A stretch of DNA of 64,000 bases from Spirochaetota bacterium (GTDB taxonomy: Bacteria; Spirochaetota; UBA4802; JAKQUI01): assembly GCA_029562645.1 (NCBI GenBank), contig JAKQUI010000033.1, positions 59,146-123,145 of the forward strand. The letters run 5' to 3'. The position numbers and the translations under genes are program-made. The notes below the pieces were generated by a model that was not told the origin of the DNA, did not search any database, and saw nothing but the letters and a program-made list of their open reading frames with translations. This document shows positions 5,411 to 47,117 of the stretch, piece by piece (position 1 is the stretch's first letter; every line of letters begins with the position of its first letter).

Positions 5411-5525
5411 AGCTCCTGAGGTATTCCCAAAAAAAGACAGGCCATAAACAATGTTTACAGCCTGCCTTCGATTCGTCGTTTCTACCGATTACCGATACGC
5501 GTTACATGCGGTAGTCGCGCTCAAC

Positions 5526-7829
5526 TCAGCCTTCGGAACCCTCGCCATCGCCAGGGACCTCGACCGGCGGTTCGGCATCGTCACCGTCTCCGGTTTCGGG
5601 CGGCAGCTCCGGATCGGGTTCAGGCAGCACCGGCATCGGGAACTTGCCGAGAATGATCGTCTTGCTCTGCTCGGCCGAGAAGAGCGTCTTGTCGACCACG
5701 AATGCAGGGCCGAACCGGACCAGCGGCTTGGTCGCCTTCTTGATGTCGATGCCGCACGGGAACTTGATCGTCCAACACTTCCATGCGCAAATTCTCTTTC
5801 TGCACCACTCGATGGTCGGGTACTTGGCGTACAGCGATATCACCCCGTTGGGGCCAACCAGGTGCAGTCTGATCTGCTCCTTGAATCGCGCGTCGATGAG
5901 GAGCGCAATCTGCTTCGTTTCCGCATCCTGATGCACCGTAAAGCCCGGATTGAACCAACCAAGCACCGGCATGCTCGCGGTAATGAGGTCGACCTTGCCT
6001 TCGACACCGGCGCTGAATCCCGGAACGCCCACACCGGCGCTCGCATACGCGCCGATCTTGGCGTACGGGATGACGCCCGCGCGCATGTTGTGTCCCACGA
6101 AGATGAACGTATTGACGCCGATCTCGCCATAAATGCCGGCCTCGACAGTGACCGGGACGGGACCGATCCAAACGGTCTGCTCGATCGAATACGACTTGGA
6201 GTAGCTCAACGCGCTGGGCGAGAGGTTTGTTCCGAAGGAATTGCTCGGAATGCCCGGATCGAAGTCGATCTCAGGATCGACGTCGAAGCTTATCGACGGA
6301 ATATTGATGAAGTCAGCGGGCGCCGTCGCACCGAGATCGCCCATGCCCCACTTGAACGGACCGTTCGAATTGAAGGAATACAGGGAATTCCCAAAAAATT
6401 CGAACTTGAAGTTCATGCCGGTCGTATACCGAGGCCCGTACCCTTCCAGCATCTCGAAGCCGTCGAAGAAACCGCTCGGATAAGTACCCGCGTCGAAGAA
6501 ACTATACGACGCGCGCGCTTCAGCATACATGAAATTTCCGAGGTACCGGAACACCCACACCGGAACGCTGCAGCTGGCCTTCGCGTCAATCCCCGACGGA
6601 TCGATCTGGAAGTACGAGTTCAGATGAAGGCCGGTCCCGAAGGTCCCGATATTGTCGAAAATGAAATTTTGCCCCCAGCCCCACTCGTAGCGGATCTTCG
6701 GGTCGATCATGAGGACCGAAAGGTCGGGAACGAGCGACAATCCGAGCGTCTTCGTATTGTTGTGCGTAAACGGCTCGTAGGTTTCAAGCGCGCTCGATAC
6801 GCGTGCGACAATCCGAAGATTGAACACCTCTTGCATCGACTGGGAGGTCACATAGGTCAGAAGCGCCCCGAGAGCGTCATCCGTGCACTTGAGGGCAACG
6901 TTGATGTTTTTCTTCTCGTACTTGTCGAGCGTCCCCACCGGGAGCGTCGCGGCATACTGCTGCGTGGCGCTATTGAAGGCGACCAGATCGCACAGCTTGT
7001 CGCCGCTGACCGTGGTTATCTCGAAACGCAGGGTCGCGTCGTTTGTTATCATGTTGCCGTAGGCGCTCACATCGACGCGGGCCTTGATGCTGTTTGAGAG
7101 CTGGTTCGTTTTCGCGTTATTGGCAAAAAGAACGAACACGTCGCTGCCATTGTCGAGGACGACATCATCAATGACGATGTCGAGCGAATTGAAGGCGCTG
7201 CTGTCCATGCAGGCCATCACGGTGGAGTTGTTGGCCTCGTTGGTAAGAGCGGCGGCGGCCTCCTCGTCGTCCATGGCGTCCTCGACATCGCGCTCGTGAA
7301 CGTGACCGAGTACATAGTACTCGCCATTGGCCGGGAGCTCCGGAATGTTCATCTGGACGGTGTAATCGTTCACGCCCGGCGTGACGTCCTTGATCTGGTA
7401 CAGGCCCACATAGTATTGCTCGGGCGCGGGAACGGGCGTCTCGGAATCGCCAACGCCATCGCCGTCCGTCTGCTCGATGTATTCATCGTACTGGTCTTTT
7501 TTTACGATATAGAGGCTGACCGGGAGCGATGAAATAATGTGCCGTTCTTCGGAATTGAGCGTAAGTACCACTTCGCCATAATGGCCGGTAAAGAGACAGT
7601 TCTGATCGCTCGCGCGACCACGCACGGCCATCTTTTCGACACGCACATTGTCGTATTCGATCTCATAGGCGCCGGCATTGCCGAGACTGGCGGAACCATA
7701 GGGAACTCCCGATGCGCCGCCACCGGCGCTCTCGTTATTCGCCGCCCCGGAACAACCGATGTACAGCAATGGAATAACGCACGACAGGAAAATGGACAAA
7801 AGAATGGATGTGCGCTTGATGGAGTGCAT
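5526..7829 (-). CDS. large lipoprotein of unknown function
   Basis: 767 aa. Signal plus lipobox (VIPLLYIGCSG). Acidic Pro/Glu-rich C-terminal tail. No known domain recognised by eye. Confidence 0.5.
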   Translation of the reverse strand: MHSIKRTSILLSIFLSCVIPLLYIGCSGAANNESAGGGASGVPYGSASLGNAGAYEIEYDNVRVEKMAVRGRASDQNCLFTGHYGEVVLTLNSEERHIISSLPVSLYIVKKDQYDEYIEQTDGDGVGDSETPVPAPEQYYVGLYQIKDVTPGVNDYTVQMNIPELPANGEYYVLGHVHERDVEDAMDDEEAAAALTNEANNSTVMACMDSSAFNSLDIVIDDVVLDNGSDVFVLFANNAKTNQLSNSIKARVDVSAYGNMITNDATLRFEITTVSGDKLCDLVAFNSATQQYAATLPVGTLDKYEKKNINVALKCTDDALGALLTYVTSQSMQEVFNLRIVARVSSALETYEPFTHNNTKTLGLSLVPDLSVLMIDPKIRYEWGWGQNFIFDNIGTFGTGLHLNSYFQIDPSGIDAKASCSVPVWVFRYLGNFMYAEARASYSFFDAGTYPSGFFDGFEMLEGYGPRYTTGMNFKFEFFGNSLYSFNSNGPFKWGMGDLGATAPADFINIPSISFDVDPEIDFDPGIPSNSFGTNLSPSALSYSKSYSIEQTVWIGPVPVTVEAGIYGEIGVNTFIFVGHNMRAGVIPYAKIGAYASAGVGVPGFSAGVEGKVDLITASMPVLGWFNPGFTVHQDAETKQIALLIDARFKEQIRLHLVGPNGVISLYAKYPTIEWCRKRICAWKCWTIKFPCGIDIKKATKPLVRFGPAFVVDKTLFSAEQSKTIILGKFPMPVLPEPDPELPPETGDGDDAEPPVEVPGDGEGSEG

Positions 7830-8098
7830 TCTCTATTTCCCCCTACATATCTTGAATAATGTTGTATGCTATTATATGTATATTTCCTGACCAGTTGGCC
7901 AGATAATTGCCGAAAACACTACCCGCAATAGCCATCAATGTCAATAAAAAAATTTACTTTGCCATTAAAAAAGTTCATACTTGACCAAACGATGAATATT
8001 GTAAAAAAATATTGAAAAATAGCGGGATGATATCATATCTGTTTCATAAAAACACCTACGCCATTCGACATATCAACCATATCCGGAAATGAGGGAAT
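7830..8098. promoter_or_regulatory. AT-rich divergent intergenic region, the likely promoters for 5526..7829(-) and 8099..8815(+)
   Basis: A 269-bp stretch that is clearly AT-rich in a window that is otherwise about 65% GC. It lies between two divergently oriented genes. Confidence 0.35.
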
Positions 8099-8815
8099 AT
8101 GAAACACCGTAAGTCGATGCTCATCGATAAAAGGTTCCAATTACGGACCGCGTTCACCATCATCGGGATCGTCATCCTCGCCTGCTCGATCATCATCGCC
8201 GCGATCGGCGTGATCGCCGCGATCAACAATCGCACCCTGCGGGACGTCGCGCGCAACCAGCAGGAAATCATCGCCACGCAAAGCGAAATGCTCAAGGCCC
8301 TCAACGTGTTCGCGCAGGAGAAGACCTGGCAGAACCTGCGGATCGCCACCGACAAGGTCTCCGGCGACCTGAACCGCAACGCCGGCAAGATCGAGGTGAA
8401 CAACGCCCTCATCAAAAACATCTCCGAGACCAACACCGTCCTCATTGCGGCCATCATCCTGTTCGTGATCGTGCAGGGGGTGGCGCTGTTCGTCATCATA
8501 CTCCGCAAGACGCACCGCATCTCCGGGCCGCTGTACCTGCTGTCGATGTACACGCAGAAGATCATCGACGGAGAGCATCCGCACATCAGGCCGCTGCGCG
8601 AAAACGACGAGTTCCAGGAATACTACGAGCTCTTCACCCGCATGGCGAAGGCGATCAAGGAACGCGATGAGGCGCACGGAAAGAAACATGCCGCGAAAAA
8701 ACGGACGCCGCGCAAGACGACCGCACGCGAGGAGCACGCCGGATCAGGCGAGGCGGAAGATGCGGGAACGCCGGCGCCAGAGGAACCGACGGATACGCCT
8801 AAAACAGATATCTAG
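8099..8815 (+). CDS. two-transmembrane protein with a HAMP-like linker
   Basis: 238 aa. TM1 AFTIIGIVILACSIIIAAIGVIAAI, a periplasmic loop, then TM2 VLIAAIILFVIVQGVALFVIIL followed by RKTHRISGPLYLLSMYTQKIIDG (R-x-I-x-x-P-L, HAMP-like). Lys/Glu-rich tail with no output domain. Confidence 0.45.
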   Translation: MKHRKSMLIDKRFQLRTAFTIIGIVILACSIIIAAIGVIAAINNRTLRDVARNQQEIIATQSEMLKALNVFAQEKTWQNLRIATDKVSGDLNRNAGKIEVNNALIKNISETNTVLIAAIILFVIVQGVALFVIILRKTHRISGPLYLLSMYTQKIIDGEHPHIRPLRENDEFQEYYELFTRMAKAIKERDEAHGKKHAAKKRTPRKTTAREEHAGSGEAEDAGTPAPEEPTDTPKTDI

Positions 8816-9896
8816 CGCCCAGCCCCAGGCCCAGGAACTGCCCGGCGTTCGACTTTTGCTGGAAAAAGAGGCCGCAGAAGGGGCTAATGAAAATCGCGAG
8901 ATTCTCGAGGGGGAGCACGCCGATCTCGCATCCGGCGACGAAGGCCGGATCGAAGAGATAGCGCATGCGGTATGAATACCGCCCGGCGGCGTCGGCCCCG
9001 TTGGGATCGCCGTCGATCAGGTGCAGCATGCAGCCGAAACCGGCATGCGGGATCACGAACAACGGTCCATAGGGCGTAAAGCGGTATCCCGCGCCAAGGA
9101 TTGCGGACGACAGGGCGTAGGACCGGATGCTCGCACGGTCGTCGTCCATCACGAAGTACCCGAGGGAAACCATCGCGAGCGCACGTCGTCCCGGCAGGAG
9201 GCGCGCGTTCAGGCCCACAACGGCCCCATACCCGCCGCCTGCCATGTCCGCCATGATCCCGACCGGCCGCAGGAGCGCCAGCGTCAATGAGACGCCGTCG
9301 AGCTCGATCCCGAAGGCGCGCTCGCGTGCTCGGTCGGCCAGCAGCTTGCGATACAACTCGACGATCTCGCGGGCGATCCGTTCGGTTTTCGCGCGCGCCT
9401 CGGCGAGGGTCGGGGCCGTTTCCGTTCGACTCAGGTCAGCCGCGCCGGTCTTCACATCGATCGCTTTCACCTCAACGACGAAGGACTCGCGATACTGGTC
9501 CCTGACGACATACTCGCTCACTTGCTCCTCGCCGGTCTTTTCCGTATAACGCGTGAGACGACCCACGACTATCTTCTCCGACGAAAGAAACGCCCCCTGC
9601 GCGGCGGCGCAGTCCTCCGCGTCACACGCGGCCCGCCCGAACCCGGCGGCCCGCTGGACCTCGTAGACGACCGCATCGTCGGGGACGGCGAAATCACGCT
9701 CCGCCCTGAGCGCGCGACGGACGATACTCGCAAGCTGCGCGGCGCTGCCGGCATCGACGTTGCGCGGAACGAAGTCGAGCGCGGCGATGGCGAGCCGCGC
9801 GCTTGCGGGCTTTTCCGCCGCCGAGAGCGCGCTTGTGCACGCGATAAGCGCGATACCCACGAGGGCCGATCGCAGGAACATGCGAAAAACGAGCAT
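8799..9896 (-). CDS. two-domain outer-membrane protein, paralog A (periplasmic alpha/beta domain plus C-terminal beta-barrel)
   Basis: Start set at MLVFRMFLRSALVGIALIACTSALSAAEKP (signal peptide). The longer ORF to 10034 would overlap the SBBP gene on the other strand. Ends ...GLGLGARYLF. Clear paralog of 11417..12499: ...GIELDGV..., a shared C-terminal barrel and the same terminal (Y/R)Y(L/Q)F. Confidence 0.5.
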   Translation of the reverse strand: MLVFRMFLRSALVGIALIACTSALSAAEKPASARLAIAALDFVPRNVDAGSAAQLASIVRRALRAERDFAVPDDAVVYEVQRAAGFGRAACDAEDCAAAQGAFLSSEKIVVGRLTRYTEKTGEEQVSEYVVRDQYRESFVVEVKAIDVKTGAADLSRTETAPTLAEARAKTERIAREIVELYRKLLADRARERAFGIELDGVSLTLALLRPVGIMADMAGGGYGAVVGLNARLLPGRRALAMVSLGYFVMDDDRASIRSYALSSAILGAGYRFTPYGPLFVIPHAGFGCMLHLIDGDPNGADAAGRYSYRMRYLFDPAFVAGCEIGVLPLENLAIFISPFCGLFFQQKSNAGQFLGLGLGARYLF

Positions 9897-10035
9897 ACCC
9901 CGGGATGATTTTGTCTTGACTTTATTGTTCGGAGCCATTATTGGGCAAAAATTACAAATCGCCGGAATCATTGCAATCCATTTCCTCCGGGCTTGCAATA
10001 AAAATACAGTGTGCGACCGCCATCGAGCGGGCACT

Positions 10036-11415
10036 ATGATTGGACAATTGAAAATAGGACGCCGATTTCTCTTTCGCTACGCGCTCGCACTTGCACTTGC
10101 ACTGTGCGCCATCGCCGCATGCAATAACACCCTCAACGAATACAAGGACGGATCATACTTCGTCGGGTCGCAGCGGATGATTACGTGGGCGAAGACATAC
10201 GGCGGGAGCTTCGAAGACGCCGCGATGGCCATCACCCAGACCTCCGATGGCGGATATGCCGTTGCCGGATACTCATTTTCGAACGATGGCGACGTGACCG
10301 GCAATCACGGCATGGCCGACTTCTGGGTGGTGAAGGTTGATTCCGACGGGAACCTCCAGTGGCAGCGCAATTACGGCGGCAGCGAGGATGATAGGGCTTA
10401 TGATATTAAACAAACCGCGGATGGCGGATTCATTCTCGTGGGCAACACCAAGTCAACTAACGGCGACATCACCGTGGAAAGCGCGCATCATGGTGGATAC
10501 GACATCTGGGTGCTCAAGATCGATGCGCTCGGCGATATTCAGTGGCAGCGGTGCTTCGGGGGCAGCCTCAATGATTATGGAACAAGCATACAGATTATCT
10601 CCTCCGGGTATGTCGTCGCAGGCTATGCGCTTTCCTCGAACGGCAACCTGACGGGAAACAACGGAAGCGCAGACGTGTGGGTGTTCACGATTGACAACAC
10701 CGGTACGCTCACCCGACAGGCGAATTTCGGCGGTCCGGCAACCGACAGCGCAACGTCGATCCAGCAAACCAGTGACGGAGGATACATTGTCGCCGCCCAC
10801 ACGCAATCGAACTCCGGAGACGTCTCCGGAAACAATGGCGCGATGGATGCGTGGATCATCAAACTCAACTCCTCGCTCTCAATCACCAATTCGACATGCC
10901 TCGGCGGAACCCTCGACGATCAGGCCAATGCCATCCGACAAACGGGAGACGGCGGGTATATCGTCGCCGGGTACGCCAACTCTGGAAACGGCGACGTGGT
11001 CGGGCAACACAATGCGGGCACGGCCGACCAGTGGGTCGTCAAGCTGAGCGGTTCGCTCGCTATCCAATGGCAGCGGTGCCTGGGGGGCTCGTCGAACGAT
11101 TTTGCCGAAGCGGTCCGGATCGCAAATGACGGCGGATATATCGTGGCAGGATACACGAGCTCCAGCGACGGCGACATAGCGGGCAAGCACGGGCAGGAAG
11201 ACGTGTGGATCGTCAAGCTTACCGCATCCGGCGCGATTCAGTGGGGCAAGTGTTTCGGCGGGGACGACAATGACCGCGCGAACAGCGTATATCCGGCATC
11301 CGACGGAGGATTCATCGTTGCCGGATATTCGAATTCGACAAACGGAGACGTCACCTTCAATCACGGGATCAGCGACTTCTTCCTCGTAAAAGTCAACGAC
11401 TGGGGCAACTGGTAG
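10036..11415 (+). CDS. seven-bladed SBBP-type beta-propeller lipoprotein
   Basis: Start at MIGQLKIGRRFLFRYALALALALCAIAACNN (lipobox). Seven tandem units of about 47 aa of the form (Y/F)GG...D.A..I.QTSDGGY(I/A)VAGY..S.DGD(V/I).G.HG..D.W(V/I)VKL...G..QWQ(R)C. Confidence 0.6.
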   Translation: MIGQLKIGRRFLFRYALALALALCAIAACNNTLNEYKDGSYFVGSQRMITWAKTYGGSFEDAAMAITQTSDGGYAVAGYSFSNDGDVTGNHGMADFWVVKVDSDGNLQWQRNYGGSEDDRAYDIKQTADGGFILVGNTKSTNGDITVESAHHGGYDIWVLKIDALGDIQWQRCFGGSLNDYGTSIQIISSGYVVAGYALSSNGNLTGNNGSADVWVFTIDNTGTLTRQANFGGPATDSATSIQQTSDGGYIVAAHTQSNSGDVSGNNGAMDAWIIKLNSSLSITNSTCLGGTLDDQANAIRQTGDGGYIVAGYANSGNGDVVGQHNAGTADQWVVKLSGSLAIQWQRCLGGSSNDFAEAVRIANDGGYIVAGYTSSSDGDIAGKHGQEDVWIVKLTASGAIQWGKCFGGDDNDRANSVYPASDGGFIVAGYSNSTNGDVTFNHGISDFFLVKVNDWGNW

Positions 11416-12499: not shown

Positions 12500-12665
12500 T
12501 TAAATATCAATGTGTAATTTATAATATGTATTTCCGGATAGCCGCTTTGGCATTTTTCGCCGTTTAGAAAAAAAAGTTCAAGTAAAAAAATATACATTTG
12601 ACAGAAAATAAATATTGTTGATTAGTGTTGCACAATTTTCGATCGACCTCCGAATCGAATACAAT

Positions 12666-12851
12666 ATGAAGCCCCTATACATAGATGTCGGAAAAGACGA
12701 GAATGATCGCTTCCCGCTCTGCCCGCACTGCGGGAGCGAGCTTCGGACAATCACCGACTATCGCAGCCACTTGAAGTTCATGTCGAACATGCATGTGTTC
12801 TGCTGCTCGAAATGCAATACGGCATTAGGCGTTACGGCCGTCTCGAAATAA
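12666..12851 (+). CDS. small zinc-ribbon protein
   Basis: 61 aa from MKPLYIDVGKDENDRFPLCPHCGSELRT...VFCCSKCNTALGV, giving CxxC...CxxC. A TTGACA-17-ATTAGT promoter-like motif lies at about 12598-12626. Confidence 0.4.
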   Translation: MKPLYIDVGKDENDRFPLCPHCGSELRTITDYRSHLKFMSNMHVFCCSKCNTALGVTAVSK

Positions 12852-12885
12852 ACGGACATTCCCCCATGCCGCGAAGGCGAGGTAT

Positions 12886-15393
12886 ATGATGAAATCGATC
12901 ACGCGCTATATGAAATATTTTTCCGGAATTGGCATTGTGATACTGCTGATCGTTTCAACAGGCTGCGGGAATATGATGGACGGGTATAGTGAAGGGGATG
13001 GGCCGGGCTCCGGGGACGCGAGTGGCGCAAATCCCTCCTTCAATGCCGCACCGGAGGTCTCCTTTACCAATCTTCGCAACAGACAACTGGTAAACAGCCC
13101 CATCGTCATTACCGGAGCTTCAGACGACGACCTGAGCGTGGACACGGTGCAGCTTTTTATCGATGGCGTCCCCCATGACGCAACGACCACCACGATGTGG
13201 TCGACCTGGACCTTCGACCTGGCGGGCGTCGCGCTGTCTTCGGGCCGGCACGAGTTTCGTGCCGTTGCAACGGACGCGAGCGGCGCCGAAGGATCCACGA
13301 CCGTTATCGTATACTTCCAGGACGGCCCCGACATGCTCCCCGTCGATGTCGATGCCGCTTCACTCGTATATGACTCGCAAACTCTTGCAGTAAACGGGAC
13401 GGTTTCCGTGACCGTTCGCAATCCCAGCGCCTACGCGGTGGAAGAACCCTATCGCGTGACTCTCTTCGCCGACGCGAACGGCAACGGGACCTACGAATCC
13501 GGAACCGACAGCATTCTCGGCGGCACGACCGTGGCGGACGGGCCCGCCGCGAACAGCGAATCGACGATTTCCATACCCGTAAACGCGACTGCCCTCTTCC
13601 GCGACAATCCCGTGTATGCGTTTGTCGATTCCGACGAAGCTATCATGGAGACCGATGAAATCAACAACGTGTATAACAGCATGGCGAGCTGCACTTATAC
13701 GGCACCACCAGGGACGTTTAATCCGGTGGTGAAGTGGCAGTGGACGGGGAGTACGGTGAATCCAAGTTCAAACCAAGTCATGTGTTCTCCCGTGGTAGCG
13801 AACCTCAACGATGACAATGGAGACGGGAAAATCGACAGCAATGACATTCCTGACATTATCTTCAATACTTTTTACAGTTACTACTACCACGACAGCGGAA
13901 CTCTCCGTGCAATCAGCGGTGACGGCACAATGGAATTATTCTCCGTCACCGGATATCCAACTTCACCAGGAGGGAATCCTGCCGTTGGAGACATCGACAA
14001 TGACGGCTTTCCGGACATTCTTGCAATTGGCCAAGAATCGGAAGGGAGCAAATTATTGTGTTTTAATCATGATGGAACTCTCAAATGGATATCTACAGAA
14101 GGAACGGGGAGTTATCTCTCCTGCCCTGCAATCGCAGACATCGATCACGATGGCGTTCCAGAGATCATTGTCGGCTCAAAGGTTTACAATAACAACGGGA
14201 CACTTCGCTGGCAAGGAACTCTTGGGACTGGGAGGAACAATTCTACCGTTGCCGACATAGACATGGACGGAGACATGGAAATCATTGCCGGGAATACTGT
14301 TTATCGTTCGAATGGTGATGTTTACTGGCAAAATGATCTTGTGTATGACGGCTATACGGCGATCGGAAACTTTGATGACGATTTCCTCCCTGAAATTGTT
14401 GTCGTAATGCAAGGCAATGTGTGGCTTCTGGAACATGATGGCGCAATCAAGTGGGGCCCGATAAATCTGCCGCATGGAGCCACACCAGCGCGTGGTGGAC
14501 CGCCCACCATAGCTGACATTGATGGCGATCAAGAGCCAGAAATCGGCATCGCCTGCGCCGAGTTCTTTGTTGTTCTTGAAACTGATGGAACAATTAAATG
14601 GCAGCAGCCAATTGACGATACGACCTCTTCAATCACTGGCTCATCAGTATTCGATTTCGAAGGCGACGGTAAAGCTGAGCTCGTATATGCTGATCAATAC
14701 AAACTCCGTATTTTTAACGGCCAAACTGGCGCGATCATTTTCGAGCACACTGCGGGTTCGGGAACGCTTCTCGAAATACCGATTGTTGTCGACGTCGACA
14801 ACGACAACAAGGCCGAAATTGTTGTTGTCGCGAATAATTACTGGAATTCATCGGTCAATCAAGGAGTTTACGTCTTCGGCGATGCGAACAACACCTGGGT
14901 AAACACCCGCAAGATCTGGAACCAGCACTCGTATCACGTAACCAACGTGAACGACGATGCCACCATCCCGCGCGTAGAACAGAACAACTGGATTACGTAC
15001 AACAACTACCGCCAGAACCAGCTTGAGCGACCATCCGGATGCTTTGACGTGTCCGCGTCGTACGTCCGCGTCACGCCTGATGCAAATCCAGGCGATTATA
15101 CCATCACCGCCCGCATCGGCAACAGCGGCGCGCTCGCAATTGGAAACACTATCGATGTAGCACTCTTCGACGGCAACCCGGAGACCGGCGGAACGCTGCT
15201 TGGCGTGAGTCAGATAACCAACCGCATGGAGGTTGGCGCATGCGTGGACGTCACATTCACGTGGAGCGGACCGGCGGCCGGGACACATTCGATCTATATC
15301 GTCGCTGACAGTAATGGGACAGGATTGAGTCGGTTGCGGGAGATGAATGAGGGGAATAATACGGGGACAACGTCAATAAATATTACTCCCTAG
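12886..15393 (+). CDS. FG-GAP/VCBS repeat lipoprotein with a C-terminal CARDB-like domain
   Basis: 835 aa. Lipobox LLIVSTGCG. Repeated D-x-D/N-x-D-G Ca-binding loops (DIDNDGFPDILAIG, ADIDHDGVPEIIVGS, ADIDMDGDMEIIAGN, DFEGDGKAELVYAD, VDVDNDNKAEIVVVA). The central part of the gene is markedly lower in GC than its 5' end. Confidence 0.6.
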   Translation: MMKSITRYMKYFSGIGIVILLIVSTGCGNMMDGYSEGDGPGSGDASGANPSFNAAPEVSFTNLRNRQLVNSPIVITGASDDDLSVDTVQLFIDGVPHDATTTTMWSTWTFDLAGVALSSGRHEFRAVATDASGAEGSTTVIVYFQDGPDMLPVDVDAASLVYDSQTLAVNGTVSVTVRNPSAYAVEEPYRVTLFADANGNGTYESGTDSILGGTTVADGPAANSESTISIPVNATALFRDNPVYAFVDSDEAIMETDEINNVYNSMASCTYTAPPGTFNPVVKWQWTGSTVNPSSNQVMCSPVVANLNDDNGDGKIDSNDIPDIIFNTFYSYYYHDSGTLRAISGDGTMELFSVTGYPTSPGGNPAVGDIDNDGFPDILAIGQESEGSKLLCFNHDGTLKWISTEGTGSYLSCPAIADIDHDGVPEIIVGSKVYNNNGTLRWQGTLGTGRNNSTVADIDMDGDMEIIAGNTVYRSNGDVYWQNDLVYDGYTAIGNFDDDFLPEIVVVMQGNVWLLEHDGAIKWGPINLPHGATPARGGPPTIADIDGDQEPEIGIACAEFFVVLETDGTIKWQQPIDDTTSSITGSSVFDFEGDGKAELVYADQYKLRIFNGQTGAIIFEHTAGSGTLLEIPIVVDVDNDNKAEIVVVANNYWNSSVNQGVYVFGDANNTWVNTRKIWNQHSYHVTNVNDDATIPRVEQNNWITYNNYRQNQLERPSGCFDVSASYVRVTPDANPGDYTITARIGNSGALAIGNTIDVALFDGNPETGGTLLGVSQITNRMEVGACVDVTFTWSGPAAGTHSIYIVADSNGTGLSRLREMNEGNNTGTTSINITP

Positions 15394-15443
15394 CGAAATA
15401 TTGTGCAATTTTTTATTTCGTTCATTAATGTTTTTTTTCACAT

Positions 15444-16322
15444 TCACGAAAGAAGGTATTCATCCACCAGCTGATCAGCGCCGTTTTGCGAGAAATCAAA
15501 ATCACGATACTCCCGCATTCGGCGCTGCCCCGTCTCGAATGTACGTACCGCGGGAACAAATATCGCTTCTTTGTTAAAGTAAATCATTTCCCAGAAAAAA
15601 TTATACCCGGCCCCGCACACAACGAGATCGAAAGCATTGTAGTAATCCGCAATTGGGAACAAGCCGTTCTCGTAATTCGATGAAAATTTTAACACATAGC
15701 CCTGCTCTTGCAAATACGAATATTCTTTTACCACTTGATGATACTCGCCAGGTTCCCCATTGTAGGCGATTAAACAATTCTGTTCGTTATGCGACAAGCC
15801 GATGCGTGCACAAGCCTGCTCTCTCGAAAGCAATTCATCCCGATTGCGTACAATGATTGGGCTAATGGCCTTCATTCGCACTTTTGAGTCAAACGGTTCA
15901 ATTCTCAAGACAAAATCGAAGGCGTCAGGATTAAAATCTAACAAACCACCATTCAGTTCCATTTGGAAAAATCGATCGTTCACCTGACGACAGAGAAATA
16001 TTTTTTTACATGCGAGATCACCAATGAAGTGGTACAACGGAAACCAGAGGAGATCAACAATGAGGACATCCGGACGCAAGCGCGACAACTCATTAAACAA
16101 ATGGGAAGACTTATAATTTCTGTCTGAGAGTGCCTCCTCGTCCTCTAATGGTATTTCTCTATGTGCAAATTTTAATTCGTCGCAAAGAAACGCGAAATCG
16201 GAACTACTCAAGATGGCATACTCTGCATCAAGCCCCTTACGACGAAGGGCATTGCCGATTGCAATGCCCCTTACGATTCTACCGGAACCAGTTATTCCTG
16301 AGGTATAATAAATTATCCGCAA
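15444..16322 (-). CDS. glycosyltransferase-like protein (GT-B / MurG-like N-terminal nucleotide-sugar motif)
   Basis: 292 aa. N-terminal MRIIYYTSGITGSGRIVRGIAIGNAL resembles the G-rich loop of GT28/MurG-type transferases. The gene is about 40-45% GC, far below the window average. Confidence 0.4.
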   Translation of the reverse strand: MRIIYYTSGITGSGRIVRGIAIGNALRRKGLDAEYAILSSSDFAFLCDELKFAHREIPLEDEEALSDRNYKSSHLFNELSRLRPDVLIVDLLWFPLYHFIGDLACKKIFLCRQVNDRFFQMELNGGLLDFNPDAFDFVLRIEPFDSKVRMKAISPIIVRNRDELLSREQACARIGLSHNEQNCLIAYNGEPGEYHQVVKEYSYLQEQGYVLKFSSNYENGLFPIADYYNAFDLVVCGAGYNFFWEMIYFNKEAIFVPAVRTFETGQRRMREYRDFDFSQNGADQLVDEYLLS

Positions 16323-16325
16323 GGA

Positions 16326-17597
16326 TCAACACTCGTAGAATTTAAAGTACCCGACACCCACACCTTTCGAGCCATATGATTGCCAATTTTCACCATCAAT
16401 ATCATCAAAGGCAAGTAACTGATCATACCCAGGATCACTTTCATCAATCACAAAAATCTTTCTATTTGTTTTTGCAACAATACGTTCCGGACCATAAAAT
16501 TTGCCAGGCCCAGATGGAGAACCCCCCGGTAAAACTGAACCATACCCCCGTACAAACCTTAGATTCTTATCAAGCTCAATAAATCTATAGCCATTCGCTC
16601 CAGCATTATTTGAAACAAACACCTTGTCATCCTTAACACAAATATCCCTAGCCCCGTTGATTTGAAAAGTATACGACCCAATCAGCGTCCCACTTCCACT
16701 TGGATTAAATTTATGAATCTTCTGCGTAGTTGCTATATATAAAATTCCATCGGTGTCAACCGCAAGGCCACGGATAAACTCCACGCCGTTGAGTGTAAAG
16801 GACTGGAGATTACCCCCAGCCGTATCTCTTCTATATACAGTACTAGGATCGTTAGCATTTTGAGTATAATAAACAAGGTTACTTTTTCGGTCAATCGCGA
16901 TCGAAGGATTCGTAAGCCCAGCAGTAACAATCGTATCGCACGTGGTACTATAAATATTATCAATCCTCACCATAAGTGGGGTCGTTGAATTAGAAATTAT
17001 ATAAATCCTCCCTTGGGCATCAAAGTCAATATCATATGGCTGCATTGCTCCCCCATAACCGATCTGCGAACCATTTCGATCAATCCAATTCTTCCCAGCC
17101 ATGTTTTCTATTTGAACGATACGATAATTTCTAAAATCCGGAATCACCAACTTCGTTTCATATGTCACCATCTGCATGGCGACTTCTTTCGTCTCCCCCG
17201 GCTCGAGATCCGCGGTGAGCGTCCCGCGATAGGAGAGCACCGCGCTCGGATCGCCGTCCTTCACGTAGCCGATCACCTGTATAAAACGCGACTTGCCCGC
17301 GGGGACAGTCACGGTGATATAGGTGGGCGGCGGCGAGTAGGAATTCTCGAAGGTCTTGATGTCCTCGGCGCTCACCACGATGGACACGCTCGCGATGTTC
17401 GACGGCGCCGCATACGCCTTCGGCATGATGAAATTCATGAACCGGTCGAACCGGGTCTTTGGAGCATTGAAGGCCTGGTCGAGGCCGAGGTTGATCACCA
17501 CGGTGGAATCGCCAAGCTCTCCGTCGGATTTGATGCAGCGAACGGATAGCATGCACAATGACGCCGCCAGAACGGTAATTGTGATTTTCTTTATCAT
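16326..17597 (-). CDS. secreted NHL-repeat (six-bladed beta-propeller) protein
   Basis: Start at MIKKITITVLAASLCMLSVRC (signal peptide). Repeated units such as ...LVYYTQNANDPSTVYRRD..., ...GILYIATTQKIHKFNPSG... and ...DKVFVSNNAGANGYRFIELD... fit NHL blades. The distal two-thirds is AT-rich and the 5' third is GC-rich. Confidence 0.5.
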   Translation of the reverse strand: MIKKITITVLAASLCMLSVRCIKSDGELGDSTVVINLGLDQAFNAPKTRFDRFMNFIMPKAYAAPSNIASVSIVVSAEDIKTFENSYSPPPTYITVTVPAGKSRFIQVIGYVKDGDPSAVLSYRGTLTADLEPGETKEVAMQMVTYETKLVIPDFRNYRIVQIENMAGKNWIDRNGSQIGYGGAMQPYDIDFDAQGRIYIISNSTTPLMVRIDNIYSTTCDTIVTAGLTNPSIAIDRKSNLVYYTQNANDPSTVYRRDTAGGNLQSFTLNGVEFIRGLAVDTDGILYIATTQKIHKFNPSGSGTLIGSYTFQINGARDICVKDDKVFVSNNAGANGYRFIELDKNLRFVRGYGSVLPGGSPSGPGKFYGPERIVAKTNRKIFVIDESDPGYDQLLAFDDIDGENWQSYGSKGVGVGYFKFYEC

Positions 17598-43940: not shown

Positions 43941-45350
43941 ATGAGTCTCTTGCGGTACATCAGTGCGCTGATTCTGCTCGCCGTCCTCGCGACGCCCGCG
44001 TTCGTGGGCGCACAGACGAACGGCGGTTCGAAGGCGGACATGCCGGATGGCGCGGCATCGCCGGATCGGCCCGACATAACCGAAACAAAAAAGGATGCGA
44101 ATGACGAGGAGGCGAAAGTGTTCTCGTTCAAGGCGCAGTTCAAGGAGCTGTTCACCTACACGGACACCATCGAGCGCTCCTTCGCGGTAAACACGTACAT
44201 CGACGAGTCGACCGGTGAGGTCGGCTACAGCGTGAAAGAGAAGGCGCGCAACAAGTCGCTCTTTGCGAATCTCATGCGGCTGCGCCTTTCGCCCGAGATC
44301 AAGGGCGGGGAGCGCTTTCTTCTGCACGTCGATCTCGACAACGAGATCATCAGTTCGGATTACATGAAGAGCCGCGAGTTCGACCAGTACTGGCGTCCGT
44401 CAGACTACAACGATTTCGCAGATCTCTCCTGCGAGCCGGTCTACGACGACATGAGCTACTACCGGATGAAGCTCCATCGGGCGTACGCCAAGATCCTTCT
44501 GGACAAGTTCACCGCGACCATCGGGCGGCAGCAGATCCGCTTCGGCAGCGGCCGCCTGTGGAATCCGCTGGACATCCTCAATCCGATCTCGCCCACGTAC
44601 GTCGAGGGGCCCGAGGACCAGAAGGGGACCGACGCGCTGCGTCTCGAGTACTATCCCTTTGACAAGACGGAGCTCGGGCTCATCATCGACCCGAAGCGCA
44701 TGGACAACGACGAGGACATCGGGAAGCTCAACAGCGACAACACCAACGTGCTGGCCCGCTTCAAGACGTCGTTGTACGAAACAGAAATCGCGCTCATGGG
44801 CGGGCGCGTCTCGCATCGCCTGGTGGGCGGCGCCGACGCATCGACCCACCTGCTCGACGGGCTCCTCCGCGGATCGGTGCTTTACGCCAAGCCCGATCCC
44901 GGGCGCGAGTACGCCCAGGCGAGCGCCGGCTACGAGTATAACTTCTCCTTCGGCCTGTACTTCCTGATCGAATACTTCTACAACGAGAACGGGATGAACT
45001 ACAACTCGAACCTCGCCAACGCCTACGAACGGTTCGTGATGGAGGGCATGAGCGAAGCGATCTACCGCAAGCTCGCCAATCAGCTGCTCACCTGGAACCA
45101 GCACTACGGCGGCATCGCGCTCGGGTACGACATCACCCCGCTCGTGCGCGGGGAGCTCTTCTCGATATACGACTTCCAAGGAAAGGGCCTCTATGCAGCG
45201 CCGTCGCTCAAGTACAACATCGTGCAGAACGCGGACCTCGCGATCGGGGTCATGAAGGCATACCGGATGGGGATTTCGCGCACGCCGACGGACTTCGAGA
45301 GCCTCATCAATCACCCGTATTTTTTCTTCTCGCTCGTCGCGTATTTCTGA
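43941..45350 (+). CDS. secreted beta-barrel-like protein (alginate-export/DUF1302-like), the putative outer-membrane component of the cluster
   Basis: 469 aa. Signal peptide MSLLRYISALILLAVLATPAFVGA. ...TIGRQQIRFGSGRLWNPLDILNP.... Terminal ...FFFSLVAYF. Confidence 0.45.
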   Translation: MSLLRYISALILLAVLATPAFVGAQTNGGSKADMPDGAASPDRPDITETKKDANDEEAKVFSFKAQFKELFTYTDTIERSFAVNTYIDESTGEVGYSVKEKARNKSLFANLMRLRLSPEIKGGERFLLHVDLDNEIISSDYMKSREFDQYWRPSDYNDFADLSCEPVYDDMSYYRMKLHRAYAKILLDKFTATIGRQQIRFGSGRLWNPLDILNPISPTYVEGPEDQKGTDALRLEYYPFDKTELGLIIDPKRMDNDEDIGKLNSDNTNVLARFKTSLYETEIALMGGRVSHRLVGGADASTHLLDGLLRGSVLYAKPDPGREYAQASAGYEYNFSFGLYFLIEYFYNENGMNYNSNLANAYERFVMEGMSEAIYRKLANQLLTWNQHYGGIALGYDITPLVRGELFSIYDFQGKGLYAAPSLKYNIVQNADLAIGVMKAYRMGISRTPTDFESLINHPYFFFSLVAYF

Positions 45351-45454
45351 GGGGACGCGGCGGGATCAGACCTGGAAAATGGGATTGACATATTTGCATT
45401 CGAGCCGGTTTATTTGCCATAGTGAAAGATATCTTGATTGTTCACGGCGGCACA

Positions 45455-45709
45455 ATGAAAGCCTTACGATTCGTAGAAAGAATAGCAAACGGCAGGATCG
45501 TTGTTGCGAAACTCGACAAGTACTCGGGGATGGATGCCGAGGTAATCATCATCCCGCTCATCGAAACCAAATCAAACGGAAAGAACGCAACGACGAAAAA
45601 AACGGCAAGCATGCGAGGGTGCTTGAAAAAATACGCCAATCCGCTCCTTGTGCAGGACGAGAAGGAGGCATGGGCGACGGCAGCCGGAAAAAAGCATGCG
45701 GGTTTGTGA
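45455..45709 (+). CDS. vapB: AbrB/SpoVT-type antitoxin (VapB-like)
   Basis: 84 aa. MKALRFVERIANGRIVVAKLDKYSGMDAEVIIIP is a swapped-hairpin-like motif. Overlaps the PIN gene by 14 nt. AT-rich. Confidence 0.5.
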   Translation: MKALRFVERIANGRIVVAKLDKYSGMDAEVIIIPLIETKSNGKNATTKKTASMRGCLKKYANPLLVQDEKEAWATAAGKKHAGL

Positions 45710-46106
45710 CGCAAATGTAGTACTCCGATATATACTTGATGACATTCCGGAACAGGCATCCATTGCTGCAAAAATAATCGACAACGAGAACGTATATATT
45801 CCGTTTGAGGTTGTCGCCGAGATTGTATATGTGCTCGAAAAGGTATATCGCATACCCCGAAGGGTAATATCAACAAGCATCAGAAATCTTTTACGGCACA
45901 ATACTATTCAAACCGTCGATAAGACAGTAGCCTTCCATGCTCTTGATGTATATAAAGACACGAAACTTGACATCGTTGACGCTTTTCTGTGCGGCTATCA
46001 GAAAAAACACCAGCATACAATAGTGACGTTCGATAAAAAACTCTTGAAACAGTTGTCACGAATGAAATCTTCATCGAGAAGAGAATCAAAAAAACTTAAA
46101 CCTTGA
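45696..46106 (+). CDS. vapC: PIN-domain ribonuclease toxin (VapC-like)
   Basis: Start at MRVCDANVVLRYILDD (Asp at position 5). Further acidic residues ...EIVYVLEK..., ...DIVDAF... and ...TFDKK... fit the PIN catalytic quartet. Confidence 0.65.
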   Translation: MRVCDANVVLRYILDDIPEQASIAAKIIDNENVYIPFEVVAEIVYVLEKVYRIPRRVISTSIRNLLRHNTIQTVDKTVAFHALDVYKDTKLDIVDAFLCGYQKKHQHTIVTFDKKLLKQLSRMKSSSRRESKKLKP

Positions 46107-46157
46107 AGCGACACCGATGATTAGTCCAGCAGAAAACTATGCGCGTCCCGGATCAAT

Positions 46158-47117
46158 ATGCTCCAAAAAATAATTAACGCCGTAAAAATCTACTTCTCGA
46201 TGCTCAACATGACGCCGGGCAGCGCACCGCCGATCTTTCGGAAACCGACGGTTGATGTCCCTCAGGCGAAGCCGACGCCGTTCTGGGTGCATGTGCTGCT
46301 GTTTGCGATCACGTTTGTGACGACGACGGCGTCGGGCGTGGTCATGTGCGCGCAATCCGACGATTTCATCGCCGAGATTCCGCGGGTGGGGATCCCCTAT
46401 GCGCTGGCCATCATGACGATCCTGCTCGCGCATGAGCTGGGCCATTACTATGCCGCAAAACGATTCGACGTTGCGACGACGCGGCCGTTCTTCATCCCCT
46501 TCATTCCGCCGGTGGGCACCATGGGCGCCGTGATCCGGATAAAATCGAAGATTCACGACAAGCGAACGCTCCTGTACATCGGCGCAGCGGGACCGATGAT
46601 CAGCTTTACCCTCAGCCTTGTCGCGACTGTCGTTGGATTGCTCCTTTCCGAGGTAAAGGCCTTTCCCGCCGCGCCTCCCGGCGGCGAGCTCATCGAGCTG
46701 GGCGATTCGATCATTCTTTTAGGCCTCACGCGACTTATTCACGGCGAGATTCCCCCAGGCTTTGGCATGATCATATCGCCGCTCACCTGGGCGGGCTGGA
46801 TCGGTTTCCTGGTAACCAGCCTCAATCTGATGCCCATCGGCCAGCTCGATGGCAGCCATATTCTCTATGCGCTCATCGGGCGGCGGCAGGTCTATGCGGG
46901 CTGGCTCGCATTCGCCGGTCTTGTGGCCCTTGCGGTCGTGTGGCCGGGGTGGATCGTGTGGATCGCGCTTGCGCTCATCGTGCTCATGATCGGCCATCCC
47001 CCGATTGAAGACGGAGAACCGATAACTATCGGCGAACGGATAGCCGGATGGTTCTGCATCGTCATTCTTATCATCACCTTTATCCCCCAGCCGGTTAACA
47101 TACTTCCGATTAAGTAA
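46158..47117 (+). CDS. M50 / site-2-protease family zinc metalloprotease
   Basis: 319 aa, polytopic. HELGHYYAAK (HExxH) and the downstream ...LMPIGQLDGSHIL (LDG motif). Confidence 0.75.
   Translation: MLQKIINAVKIYFSMLNMTPGSAPPIFRKPTVDVPQAKPTPFWVHVLLFAITFVTTTASGVVMCAQSDDFIAEIPRVGIPYALAIMTILLAHELGHYYAAKRFDVATTRPFFIPFIPPVGTMGAVIRIKSKIHDKRTLLYIGAAGPMISFTLSLVATVVGLLLSEVKAFPAAPPGGELIELGDSIILLGLTRLIHGEIPPGFGMIISPLTWAGWIGFLVTSLNLMPIGQLDGSHILYALIGRRQVYAGWLAFAGLVALAVVWPGWIVWIALALIVLMIGHPPIEDGEPITIGERIAGWFCIVILIITFIPQPVNILPIK

Follow-up and report, generated by a model that had tools for sequence, protein, structure and literature searches.

The window analysed here is a stretch of 64,000 nucleotides from an uncultured Spirochaetota bacterium (GenBank assembly GCA_029562645.1, contig JAKQUI010000033.1, positions 59,146 to 123,145 of the forward strand), and coordinates are given within it unless stated otherwise. 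We examined a low-GC locus in this window that comprises two convergent genes predicted to encode beta-propeller lipoproteins, with a glycosyltransferase-like gene between them. Core genes of the cell envelope flank the locus, with bamA, ompH, lpxD, lpxA and ykuD on one side and a gene for an outer membrane protein (OMP)-like protein on the other. Both propeller proteins carry lipoprotein-type signal peptides, as read from the sequence. Because the two lipoprotein genes are convergent, their conserved 5' ends face outward. We refer to the version of the locus in the window as allele A.

The first lipoprotein gene (12886-15393, + strand) begins with a conserved 5' end (12886-13011) encoding a signal peptide, a lipobox (...STGC) and a linker that runs to ...GDGPGS. 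This is followed by a Big_7 domain (Pfam match 6.3e-6) and a first CARDB-like module (13012-13743; GC 0.59, GC at third codon positions (GC3) 0.71), a hypervariable FG-GAP beta-propeller (13744-14880; GC3 0.48 in allele A), and a C-terminal CARDB module (14881-15393; match 2.1e-7; GC 0.56, GC3 0.69) that is semi-conserved between alleles. The propeller matches FG-GAP_3 (PF13517) at 1.2e-22 in four stretches and PF01839 at 1.7e-14. Units of the DIDNDG type recur in the protein (repeat family D1), giving it the repeated units with calcium-binding-type DxDxDG loops found in FG-GAP/VCBS proteins. By the coordinates of the open reading frames (ORFs), an AT-rich spacer of 50 nucleotides (15394-15443) separates the stop codon of this gene from that of the glycosyltransferase-like gene.

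The second lipoprotein gene (16326-17597, - strand) has a conserved 5' segment (17136-17597) encoding a signal peptide, a conserved cysteine (Cys21) and an N-terminal beta-sandwich, or 'stalk', that ends in ...YETKLVIPD. The remainder, stop codon included (16326-17135; GC 0.41, GC3 0.34 in allele A), encodes a variable six-bladed NHL-type beta-propeller. Gene callers applied to metagenome-assembled genomes (MAGs) start this gene at ATG 17597 (423 aa), and the ORF listed for the window extends to GTG 17639 (437 aa). An AlphaFold model of the 423-aa protein (pLDDT 81) shows the beta-sandwich followed by the six-bladed propeller. The best matches of the propeller in the PDB are Pizza6, the PknD sensor domain, TRIM71 and the NHL domain of Brat (E about 1e-9, target-normalised TM 0.6-0.76). 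In Pfam the protein from the window matches only SBBP (PF06739; 2.6e-5, 24.5 bits); the NHL repeat itself (PF01436) has no match in this protein and is recorded for some of its homologues only.

The gene between them (15444-16322, - strand) begins 3 nt downstream of the NHL-type gene and encodes a protein of 292 aa. Its AlphaFold model (pLDDT 93.2) has a GT-B fold, and Foldseek comparison of the model with the PDB returned SsfS6 (2e-8), MurG (3.9e-8), SpnP and LanGT2, with E-values from 2e-8 to 1e-6 and a probability of 1.00. Residues 204-263 match Glyco_tran_28_C (PF04101) at 6.5e-5, with 23.5 bits against a cut-off of 22. A search of PDB sequences with a profile of the family gave no significant match. 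In a GAGYN..WE segment aligned over 42 homologues, Y240, W244 and E245 never vary, and each of G237, A238, G239 and N241 is conserved in at least 90%. More than 300 unannotated proteins of about 290 aa belong to the family. By its modelled structure the protein is a homologue of GT-B glycosyltransferases (GT28/GT1-like) with a predicted activity of this kind. We rejected an assignment to MurG itself, since the NCBIfam murG model matches with only 21 bits against a cut-off of 250. A preliminary description of this DNA, made by eye from the sequence, had named the domains as FG-GAP, CARDB, glycosyltransferase-like and NHL-type, and these assignments hold, by Pfam for FG-GAP and CARDB and by the structure models for the other two.

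The same description placed a low-GC island at 13650-17200 in a window of about 65% GC. Computed over the 64 kb, the GC of the window is lower (0.600), and the island is present with a GC of 0.461. The lowest-GC stretch of 3.55 kb in the window starts at 13601. Measured against the remainder of the window, tetranucleotide distance has maxima of z = 7.3 (16001-17000) and z = 5.0 (13751-14750), and eight of the nine most deviant 1-kb tetranucleotide windows fall in the low-GC region; 13650-17200 is the strongest outlier in the window for both GC and tetranucleotide composition. The drop in GC sits at synonymous sites, with GC3 falling from 0.75-0.87 to 0.23-0.50 within both propeller ORFs. For reference, GC3 in 60-codon windows of 29 other genes has a mean of 0.86 (sd 0.09, first percentile 0.58). 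In the FG-GAP gene GC3 is 0.75-0.80 up to about codon 270, 0.40-0.50 over codons ~330-660, and 0.65-0.77 at the CARDB end. The glycosyltransferase-like gene has a GC3 of 0.47 over its full length. In the NHL-type gene GC3 is 0.82-0.87 over codons 30-150 and 0.23-0.43 from codon 150 to the stop.

These values agree with most of what had been estimated by eye. The GC given for each segment was within a few points of the computed value, the 5' ends of both lipoprotein genes are host-like, the CARDB end is intermediate, and the compositional breakpoints lie inside both ORFs. The distal part is low in GC in the NHL-type gene, as proposed; in the FG-GAP gene the low-GC part is instead the central propeller. 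The sliding analysis of GC and tetranucleotides that had been suggested as a check places GC and codon usage here far outside the distribution of the window.

Alternative cassettes between conserved junctions

A contig from the same species (L091), found through an NHL homologue with 68% identity (P0002), carries a different version of the locus that we call allele B. The same genes flank it on both sides, with ompH-lpxD-lpxA-ykuD on one side and the OMP-like gene, an SBBP-repeat lipoprotein gene and others on the opposite side. At the DNA level the contig and the window are 99.19% identical over 22374-17085 (5.3 kb) and 99.71% identical over 13011-6475 (6.5 kb), and blastn gave no alignment between the two for 13012-17135. 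Both junctions are abrupt and preserve the reading frame. On the right (17136/17135) the break follows ...YETKLVIPD, at the end of the N-terminal beta-sandwich of the NHL-type protein, and on the left (13011/13012) it comes where the linker (...GDGPGS) behind the signal peptide and lipobox of the FG-GAP protein ends. The interior is 4124 bp long in allele A and 4231 bp in allele B. Allele B encodes an NHL propeller with 50% aa identity to that of allele A, a GT-B homologue with 48% identity, a GNAT acetyltransferase and an FG-GAP_2-type lipoprotein.

Two further versions break at the same position (17136) in the NHL-type gene. Allele C (L092) encodes an NHL propeller with 37% aa identity to that of allele A, a glycosyltransferase homologue with 48-49% identity and a GXM-like methyltransferase, and it rejoins the window at the CARDB end with 88% nucleotide identity. 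Allele D (L101/L102) encodes an NHL propeller with 38% aa identity to that of allele A, a glycosyltransferase with 67% identity, an MBOAT acyltransferase, a 325-aa ORF and an FG-GAP protein related to that of allele A. The 5' arm of the NHL-type gene is conserved throughout, with 100% aa identity to allele A in B, 97% aa identity in C and 98-100% nucleotide identity in D. The contigs cover the FG-GAP gene completely in alleles A and B, for most of its length in D, and at the CARDB end only in C. All cassettes contain an NHL propeller and a GT-B homologue, with 33-67% aa identity between alleles, and all are low in GC (35-45%). GC3 varies little between alleles within each module, being 0.31-0.34 for the NHL propeller, 0.39-0.47 for the glycosyltransferase and 0.48 for the FG-GAP propeller. 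Alleles A and C are both present in one metagenome assembly (GCA_040364335.1). The locus has at least four alleles. The conserved 5' segments and variable centre that had been predicted were seen in L091, L092 and L101/L102. A mosaic fixed and identical in all relatives had been named as the sign of old amelioration rather than of a variable cassette, and the alignment with relatives found a mosaic that is not fixed.

Comparison of alleles A and D showed that the breakpoints in the FG-GAP gene are nested. Up to 13743, through the Big_7 domain and first CARDB-like module, the two alleles are 98-100% identical in nucleotides (60-nt windows) and 100% identical over the last 71 aa. Over the FG-GAP propeller (13744-14880) identity falls to 43-77% in nucleotides and 52% in amino acids, and over the C-terminal CARDB (14881-15360) it recovers to 72-88% and 81%. 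The segment 13012-13743, which is host-like in GC and common to A and D, has no similarity to allele B. Since it is missing from B, the boundary of the cassette depends on the alleles compared, with the left boundary at 13012 or 13744 and the right boundary at 17135. The left edge of the island as originally drawn, at 13650, therefore stands for the GC break; against allele B the variable region starts at 13012.

Divergence and composition follow the same map along the locus. Conserved parts have host-like GC3, moderately diverged parts have intermediate GC3, and hyper-diverged parts have low GC3. From the CARDB end the preliminary description had suggested more than one exchange event, and the three-step identity between A and D agrees with this. 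The histories of the modules are also discordant, with the NHL propeller of allele A nearest to that of B and its glycosyltransferase and FG-GAP gene nearest to those of D, so that the cassettes themselves are recombinant.

The exact 292-aa protein of allele A recurs on 23 contigs, which come from many independent assemblies, among them three NCBI MAGs labelled Spirochaetota, several ENA assemblies, Logan assemblies and one JGI metagenome. In the ten of these contigs that we compared, gene order is identical and nucleotide identity is 98.8-100% straight across the GC transitions; one of them (L002, GCA_035401325.1) is 100% identical to the window. Scanning contigs of JGI metagenomes with the conserved N-terminal domain of the NHL-type protein found a single locus (L093), which carries allele A.

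We then compared single-nucleotide polymorphisms (SNPs) between the window and nine independently assembled contigs with allele A. The flanks contain 3-16 SNPs per 500 bp (about 1-3%) and at least four haplotypes. Between them lies a tract of 3434 bp (13708-17141) with two singleton SNPs only, at 13860 (L006) and 15231 (L003), bounded by the last SNP on the left at 13707 and the first on the right at 17142. The spacer between the stop codons is inside this tract. Its ends match the boundaries of low GC: the right end is a few bases from the breakpoint common to the alleles (17136) and the left end is the GC break. In the arm within the NHL-type gene the SNPs among carriers of allele A are mostly synonymous (18 synonymous and 2 nonsynonymous, and 11 and 6), with at least three haplotypes. 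In the FG-GAP gene, the 5' end has four SNPs at 12938-12960, and SNPs in 13012-13743 amount to ~1.5%, with the last at 13707. Thus, near-identical copies of allele A are found in divergent backgrounds with mostly synonymous SNPs at the borders.

At the left border, five sites (13661, 13674, 13695, 13698 and 13707) have A or T in the window, L005 and allele D and have G or C in most other contigs with allele A. A sixth site (13677) goes in the opposite direction, and all six are mostly synonymous. The pattern suggests that strains are about 50-80 bp apart in the position of their left crossover.

Proposed exchange of the cassette and alternative explanations

Based on these results, we consider it very probable that an uncultured species of Spirochaetota has a flexible genomic island of the replacement type here, of which 13012-17135 is allele A. 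Islands of this kind, which include O-chain, flagellar-glycosylation and S-layer loci, have been described in aquatic prokaryotes (Lopez-Perez, Martin-Cuadrado and Rodriguez-Valera 2014, PMC4033161). In that study a near-identical island in divergent strains together with mostly synonymous SNPs at its borders is called the 'smoking gun' of homologous exchange, and the SNP pattern of allele A matches this published signature of replacement flexible genomic islands. A surface-protein cassette swapped by homologous recombination at conserved N-terminal regions was the explanation first proposed for the compositional mosaic, and the comparison of alleles supports it.

In the mechanism we propose, the conserved, outward-facing 5' segments of the two lipoprotein genes would act as homology arms. 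The right arm would be the 5' segment of the NHL-type gene (17136-17597), and in an exchange between A and B the left arm would be the 5' end of the FG-GAP gene (12886-13011). Strains would swap the interior by homologous recombination through a double crossover in these arms, and each exchange would replace, in frame, both propeller domains together with the linked glycosyltransferase and other enzyme or enzymes. The breakpoints at 13011, 13743, 14880 and 17136 lie at predicted domain boundaries, as expected if cassettes are mosaics of modules with different histories. The motif at the break in the NHL-type gene hardly varies within the whole family (T148 is present in all sequences, and K149, P153 and D154 in at least 90%) and, to judge from this conservation, may help crossover even with diverged partners.

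Signal peptides, predicted folds and the analogy with known loci suggest that the products are exposed at the cell surface, that the glycosyltransferase and the acetyl-, acyl- and methyltransferases decorate a surface glycan or glycoprotein, and that negative frequency-dependent selection by phages or other surface-recognising agents keeps the polymorphism. We infer that the alleles form an old pool circulating in the lineage and that allele A spread recently. The type of strain-variable surface locus is already known and, although well documented here, will not surprise a specialist. Recognised by its composition alone, it offers a clear case of a species that keeps several versions of what is probably its exposed surface, and it extends the concept of the replacement flexible genomic island to uncultured Spirochaetota and to propeller lipoproteins.

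Several points weigh against this reading. Both flanks are covered for alleles A and B only, and the allelism of C and D rests on the right junction. On the left, support for D comes from the 5' part of the FG-GAP gene only, with the far left flank lying off the contigs of C and D. All sequences are metagenome assemblies, from which long-range linkage and strain identity are deduced. The FG-GAP_2-type gene of allele B has an in-frame stop codon (L091 8709-8711) that separates ORFs of 312 aa and 244 aa in the same frame. This could reflect a pseudogene, a sequencing error or read-through, and it means that not every cassette gene need be functional. Finally, patches with almost no SNPs are not specific to the cassette. 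The stretch 5465-10193 has 0-2 SNPs in 4.7 kb relative to L001, L003, L093 and L091, although these contigs differ by ~1% farther to the right. Recombination has made a patchwork of the strain genomes, and the argument from the SNP-free tract at 13708-17141 therefore rests on the coincidence of its ends with the GC and allele boundaries.

The metagenomic origin of the sequences also raises the possibility that the mosaic comes from chimeric assembly, and the richness of the propellers in Asn, Asp, Gly and Tyr could point to an old, fixed feature produced by amino-acid composition or translational selection. We give these explanations next to no probability. The same junctions occur in 23 contigs of independent assemblies, the GC drop is found at third codon positions, the glycosyltransferase is equally low in GC and has no propeller, and the locus is polymorphic rather than fixed. 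Programmed variation within one genome, by silent cassettes, an invertase, a shufflon or a diversity-generating retroelement, deserves mention since the host belongs to a phylum with known silent-cassette systems and since several alleles share precise breakpoints. Such systems include vlsE of Borrelia and tprK of Treponema among spirochaetes, and also pilE/pilS of Neisseria. We regard it as highly improbable at this locus: the 64-kb window holds no second copy of any part of the cassette at the DNA or protein level, the junctions have no inverted or direct repeats, and no recombinase or reverse-transcriptase domain was found among the ORFs of the locus that were scanned. Moreover, the alleles differ in whole genes (GNAT, methyltransferase, MBOAT) and by 50-67% in amino acids over ~4 kb, and allele A is stably identical in nine assemblies.

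We also rejected an integrative mobile island and site-specific recombination, as the window has no tRNA gene, the cassette has no flanking direct repeats, and both junctions fall within ORFs and keep the frame. The cassette ORFs that were scanned gave no integrase or transposase domain, nucleotide searches of phages and plasmids gave no similarity, and there are no terminal repeats at the cassette junctions. A defence island was rejected when PADLOC models gave no matches to the cassette proteins.

Exchange of allelic cassettes between strains, the reading that we favour, resembles the islands of aquatic prokaryotes (PMC4033161) in that genes of equivalent function that cannot be aligned occupy the same chromosomal position, the island can be identical even though the core differs by several SNPs per 500 bp, mostly synonymous SNP peaks occur in conserved borders, and exchange proceeds by homologous recombination without mobile-element machinery. 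In contrast to those islands, the one described here is small (~4 kb, 3-5 genes), its host is an uncultured species of Spirochaetota, what varies in it is mainly propeller lipoproteins instead of a polysaccharide pathway, and its crossover arms lie inside the variable genes at domain boundaries, which would give in-frame chimeric proteins.

The enterobacterial O-antigen (rfb) clusters, such as the galactose-initiated set of Salmonella (PMC3715488), are similar in other respects. Their segments differ in GC but are always below the genome, GC falls toward the antigen-specific centre, genes for glycosyltransferases and for O-acetyl and other modifications vary by type, and exchange occurs via conserved flanks. 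Unlike the rfb clusters, the spirochaete cassettes each have a single GT-B gene and no genes for export or precursors. Searches with Pfam and NCBIfam found no wzx or wzy, ABC transporter, initiating transferase or sugar-nucleotide gene in the ORFs of cassettes A-D. The comparison with O-antigen and capsule loci made in the preliminary description thus does not apply in the strict sense.

Alleles of the type IV pilin of Pseudomonas aeruginosa (groups I-V) occupy a fixed position, bordered by conserved genes, and have allele-specific accessory genes (tfpO and related). The pilin gene is conserved in its N-terminal part, diverges in its C-terminal part, and is linked to a downstream accessory or glycosylation gene. 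The spirochaete locus shares with it a gene of this build and a linked modifying gene; the difference is that the products are propeller lipoproteins rather than pilin and that two convergent genes are swapped together. In the S-layer cassette of Clostridioides difficile (slpA; Dingle et al. 2013, as cited in PMC4033161), a surface-protein gene and its neighbours are exchanged between clonal frames. According to the same citing source, this occurs by homologous recombination, and glycosylation genes are present in some types. The C. difficile cassette concerns an S-layer protein of a Gram-positive bacterium and replaces the whole gene, unlike the domain replacement in diderm lipoproteins seen here. 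In their logic, the pilin alleles with their accessory genes and the C. difficile cassette may be the closest analogues of the spirochaete locus.

Distant relatives and the origin of low GC

A gene for an NHL-type lipoprotein followed by one for a GT-B homologue occurs in several distant lineages (L095, L096-L098, L099/L100), and genes for FecR-domain proteins and CHASE2-guanylate cyclases are often near these pairs. The glycosyltransferases of alleles A, B and C are 42-49% identical among themselves and 42-52% identical to orthologues of other lineages (L095, L096, L099), with identity of up to 61% among database homologues. For the NHL propeller, identity is 33-50% between alleles versus 24-41% to other lineages. 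The N-terminal domain of the same protein is 97-100% identical within the species versus 20-46% outside it. By these figures the alleles differ among themselves about as much as they do from orthologues of distant Spirochaetota. A search of 5.8 billion proteins yielded no near-identical donor. With LpxA as an anchor on contigs taken from one genome per species, the best relatives are 45-46% identical (Elusimicrobia and others), and this search brought up no close relative of the host.

In three lineages with 46-50% GC the NHL-glycosyltransferase module has the composition of its host. In an independent lineage of ~60% GC (L099, GCA_964423905.1), an NHL orthologue with 32% identity (7001-8281 of that locus) shows the same mosaic as the window: GC3 is 0.76-0.86 across the initial ~125 codons and 0.08-0.40 over the propeller. 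Between this gene and a glycosyltransferase homologue with host-like GC sits an inserted GIY-YIG gene. The mosaic of stalk and propeller in L099 suggests that swapping of propellers is a property of the NHL family, and it fits a general swapping mechanism across the family.

Two explanations for the low GC of the cassettes have to be weighed. In one, the cassettes are recent foreign imports from lower-GC bacteria in which the NHL-glycosyltransferase module is native, integrated at the arms and still unameliorated. Other lineages of Spirochaetota (L094-L096) do carry the pair at their own GC of 46-50%, and FG-GAP orthologues of the same architecture occur in other lineages, with N-terminal sequences rich in Asn, Ile and Lys. 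The near absence of diversity in allele A fits a recent arrival, the glycosyltransferase alleles are polyphyletic within their family, and for O-antigen clusters of unusual GC the conventional explanation is transfer from low-GC donors (PMC3715488). We nevertheless consider import rather doubtful. Even with the same habitats included among the proteins searched, the best non-allelic matches reach 61% for the glycosyltransferase, 41% for the NHL propeller and 58% for the FG-GAP propeller, and the GC of the cassettes is below that of the candidate donor lineages sampled. A distant donor would be without the conserved arms needed for a double crossover. In addition, four alleles that are 33-50% identical have nearly equal GC3 in each module, which fits a common long-term equilibrium better than four donors.

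The other explanation is an old balanced polymorphism in which long-resident alleles, prevented by their divergence from recombining, escape GC-biased gene conversion and efficient selection for GC and drift in place toward the AT-biased mutational equilibrium, so that low GC would follow from hypervariability. The loss of GC3 tracks divergence between alleles, with GC3 of at least 0.8 in the arms, 0.69 in the CARDB module (~80-88% nucleotide identity) and 0.31-0.48 in the propellers (~50%). GC3 per module is equal across all four alleles, the independent high-GC lineage L099 has the same mosaic in its NHL orthologue, and recombination has been proposed to be connected with GC content in bacteria (PMC4450053). 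Against this, the module is not below the GC of its host in the lower-GC lineages, as would be expected if those loci are not polymorphic, and drift alone leaves the near-zero diversity of allele A unexplained, so that a recent sweep of A must be added. We regard drift toward AT as a plausible explanation, if one to be held tentatively. The distances between alleles, their shared GC3 and the mosaic in L099 are somewhat easier to reconcile with an old pool of alleles at a compositional equilibrium of its own than with four recent imports. The locus is thus a test case for whether the low GC of hypervariable surface loci reflects foreign origin or reduced recombination between divergent alleles. 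Of wider interest are this module-wise match between divergence and GC3 and the conservation across the phylum of an uncharacterised pair of NHL-type lipoprotein and GT-B homologue.

A bolder proposal, which we think unlikely, is that the NHL-type lipoprotein and the small GT-B protein make up a surface module of two genes, widespread in Spirochaetota and not described before, with the enzyme producing a strain-specific glycan that the cognate propeller carries or recognises, the cassette as a determinant of strain identity, and swapping at the invariant ...ETKLVIPD hinge as a built-in means of diversification across the whole family. If so, the polymorphic cassette would serve in recognition of self and non-self or as a phage receptor. 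We rejected strict co-variation of propeller and glycosyltransferase, as the simple model of matched pairs is weakened by the reassortment seen in allele A, where the propeller is nearest to B and the glycosyltransferase to D.

Other features near the locus

A second allelic propeller swap is found 1.5 kb away, at 10194-11366, in the SBBP-repeat lipoprotein gene (ORF 9760-11415, + strand; likely start about 10036). The window and L091 share one version of this gene (GC 0.58), and L001, L003 and L093 have the other (GC 0.465). Conservation covers the signal peptide with its linker (to ...GSQRMITWAK) and the final ~10 residues (...VKVNDWGNW), and the repeat body between them is strongly diverged. 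The two loci reassort independently, with the combinations A+1 in the window, B+1 in L091 and A+2 in L001 and L093.

Upstream of the FG-GAP gene is an AT-rich, non-coding stretch (12500-12885, ~40% GC) with several SNPs between strains, in which a 61-aa ORF is called in some MAGs. This is presumably the promoter region of the variable FG-GAP gene. Elsewhere in the window, a gene at 45648-46106 (+ strand; GC 0.42, GC3 0.42) encodes a PIN-domain protein (PF01850, 2.1e-14). It lies inside 45251-46250, the most deviant 1-kb tetranucleotide window outside the low-GC region, and is probably a separately acquired toxin-antitoxin module.

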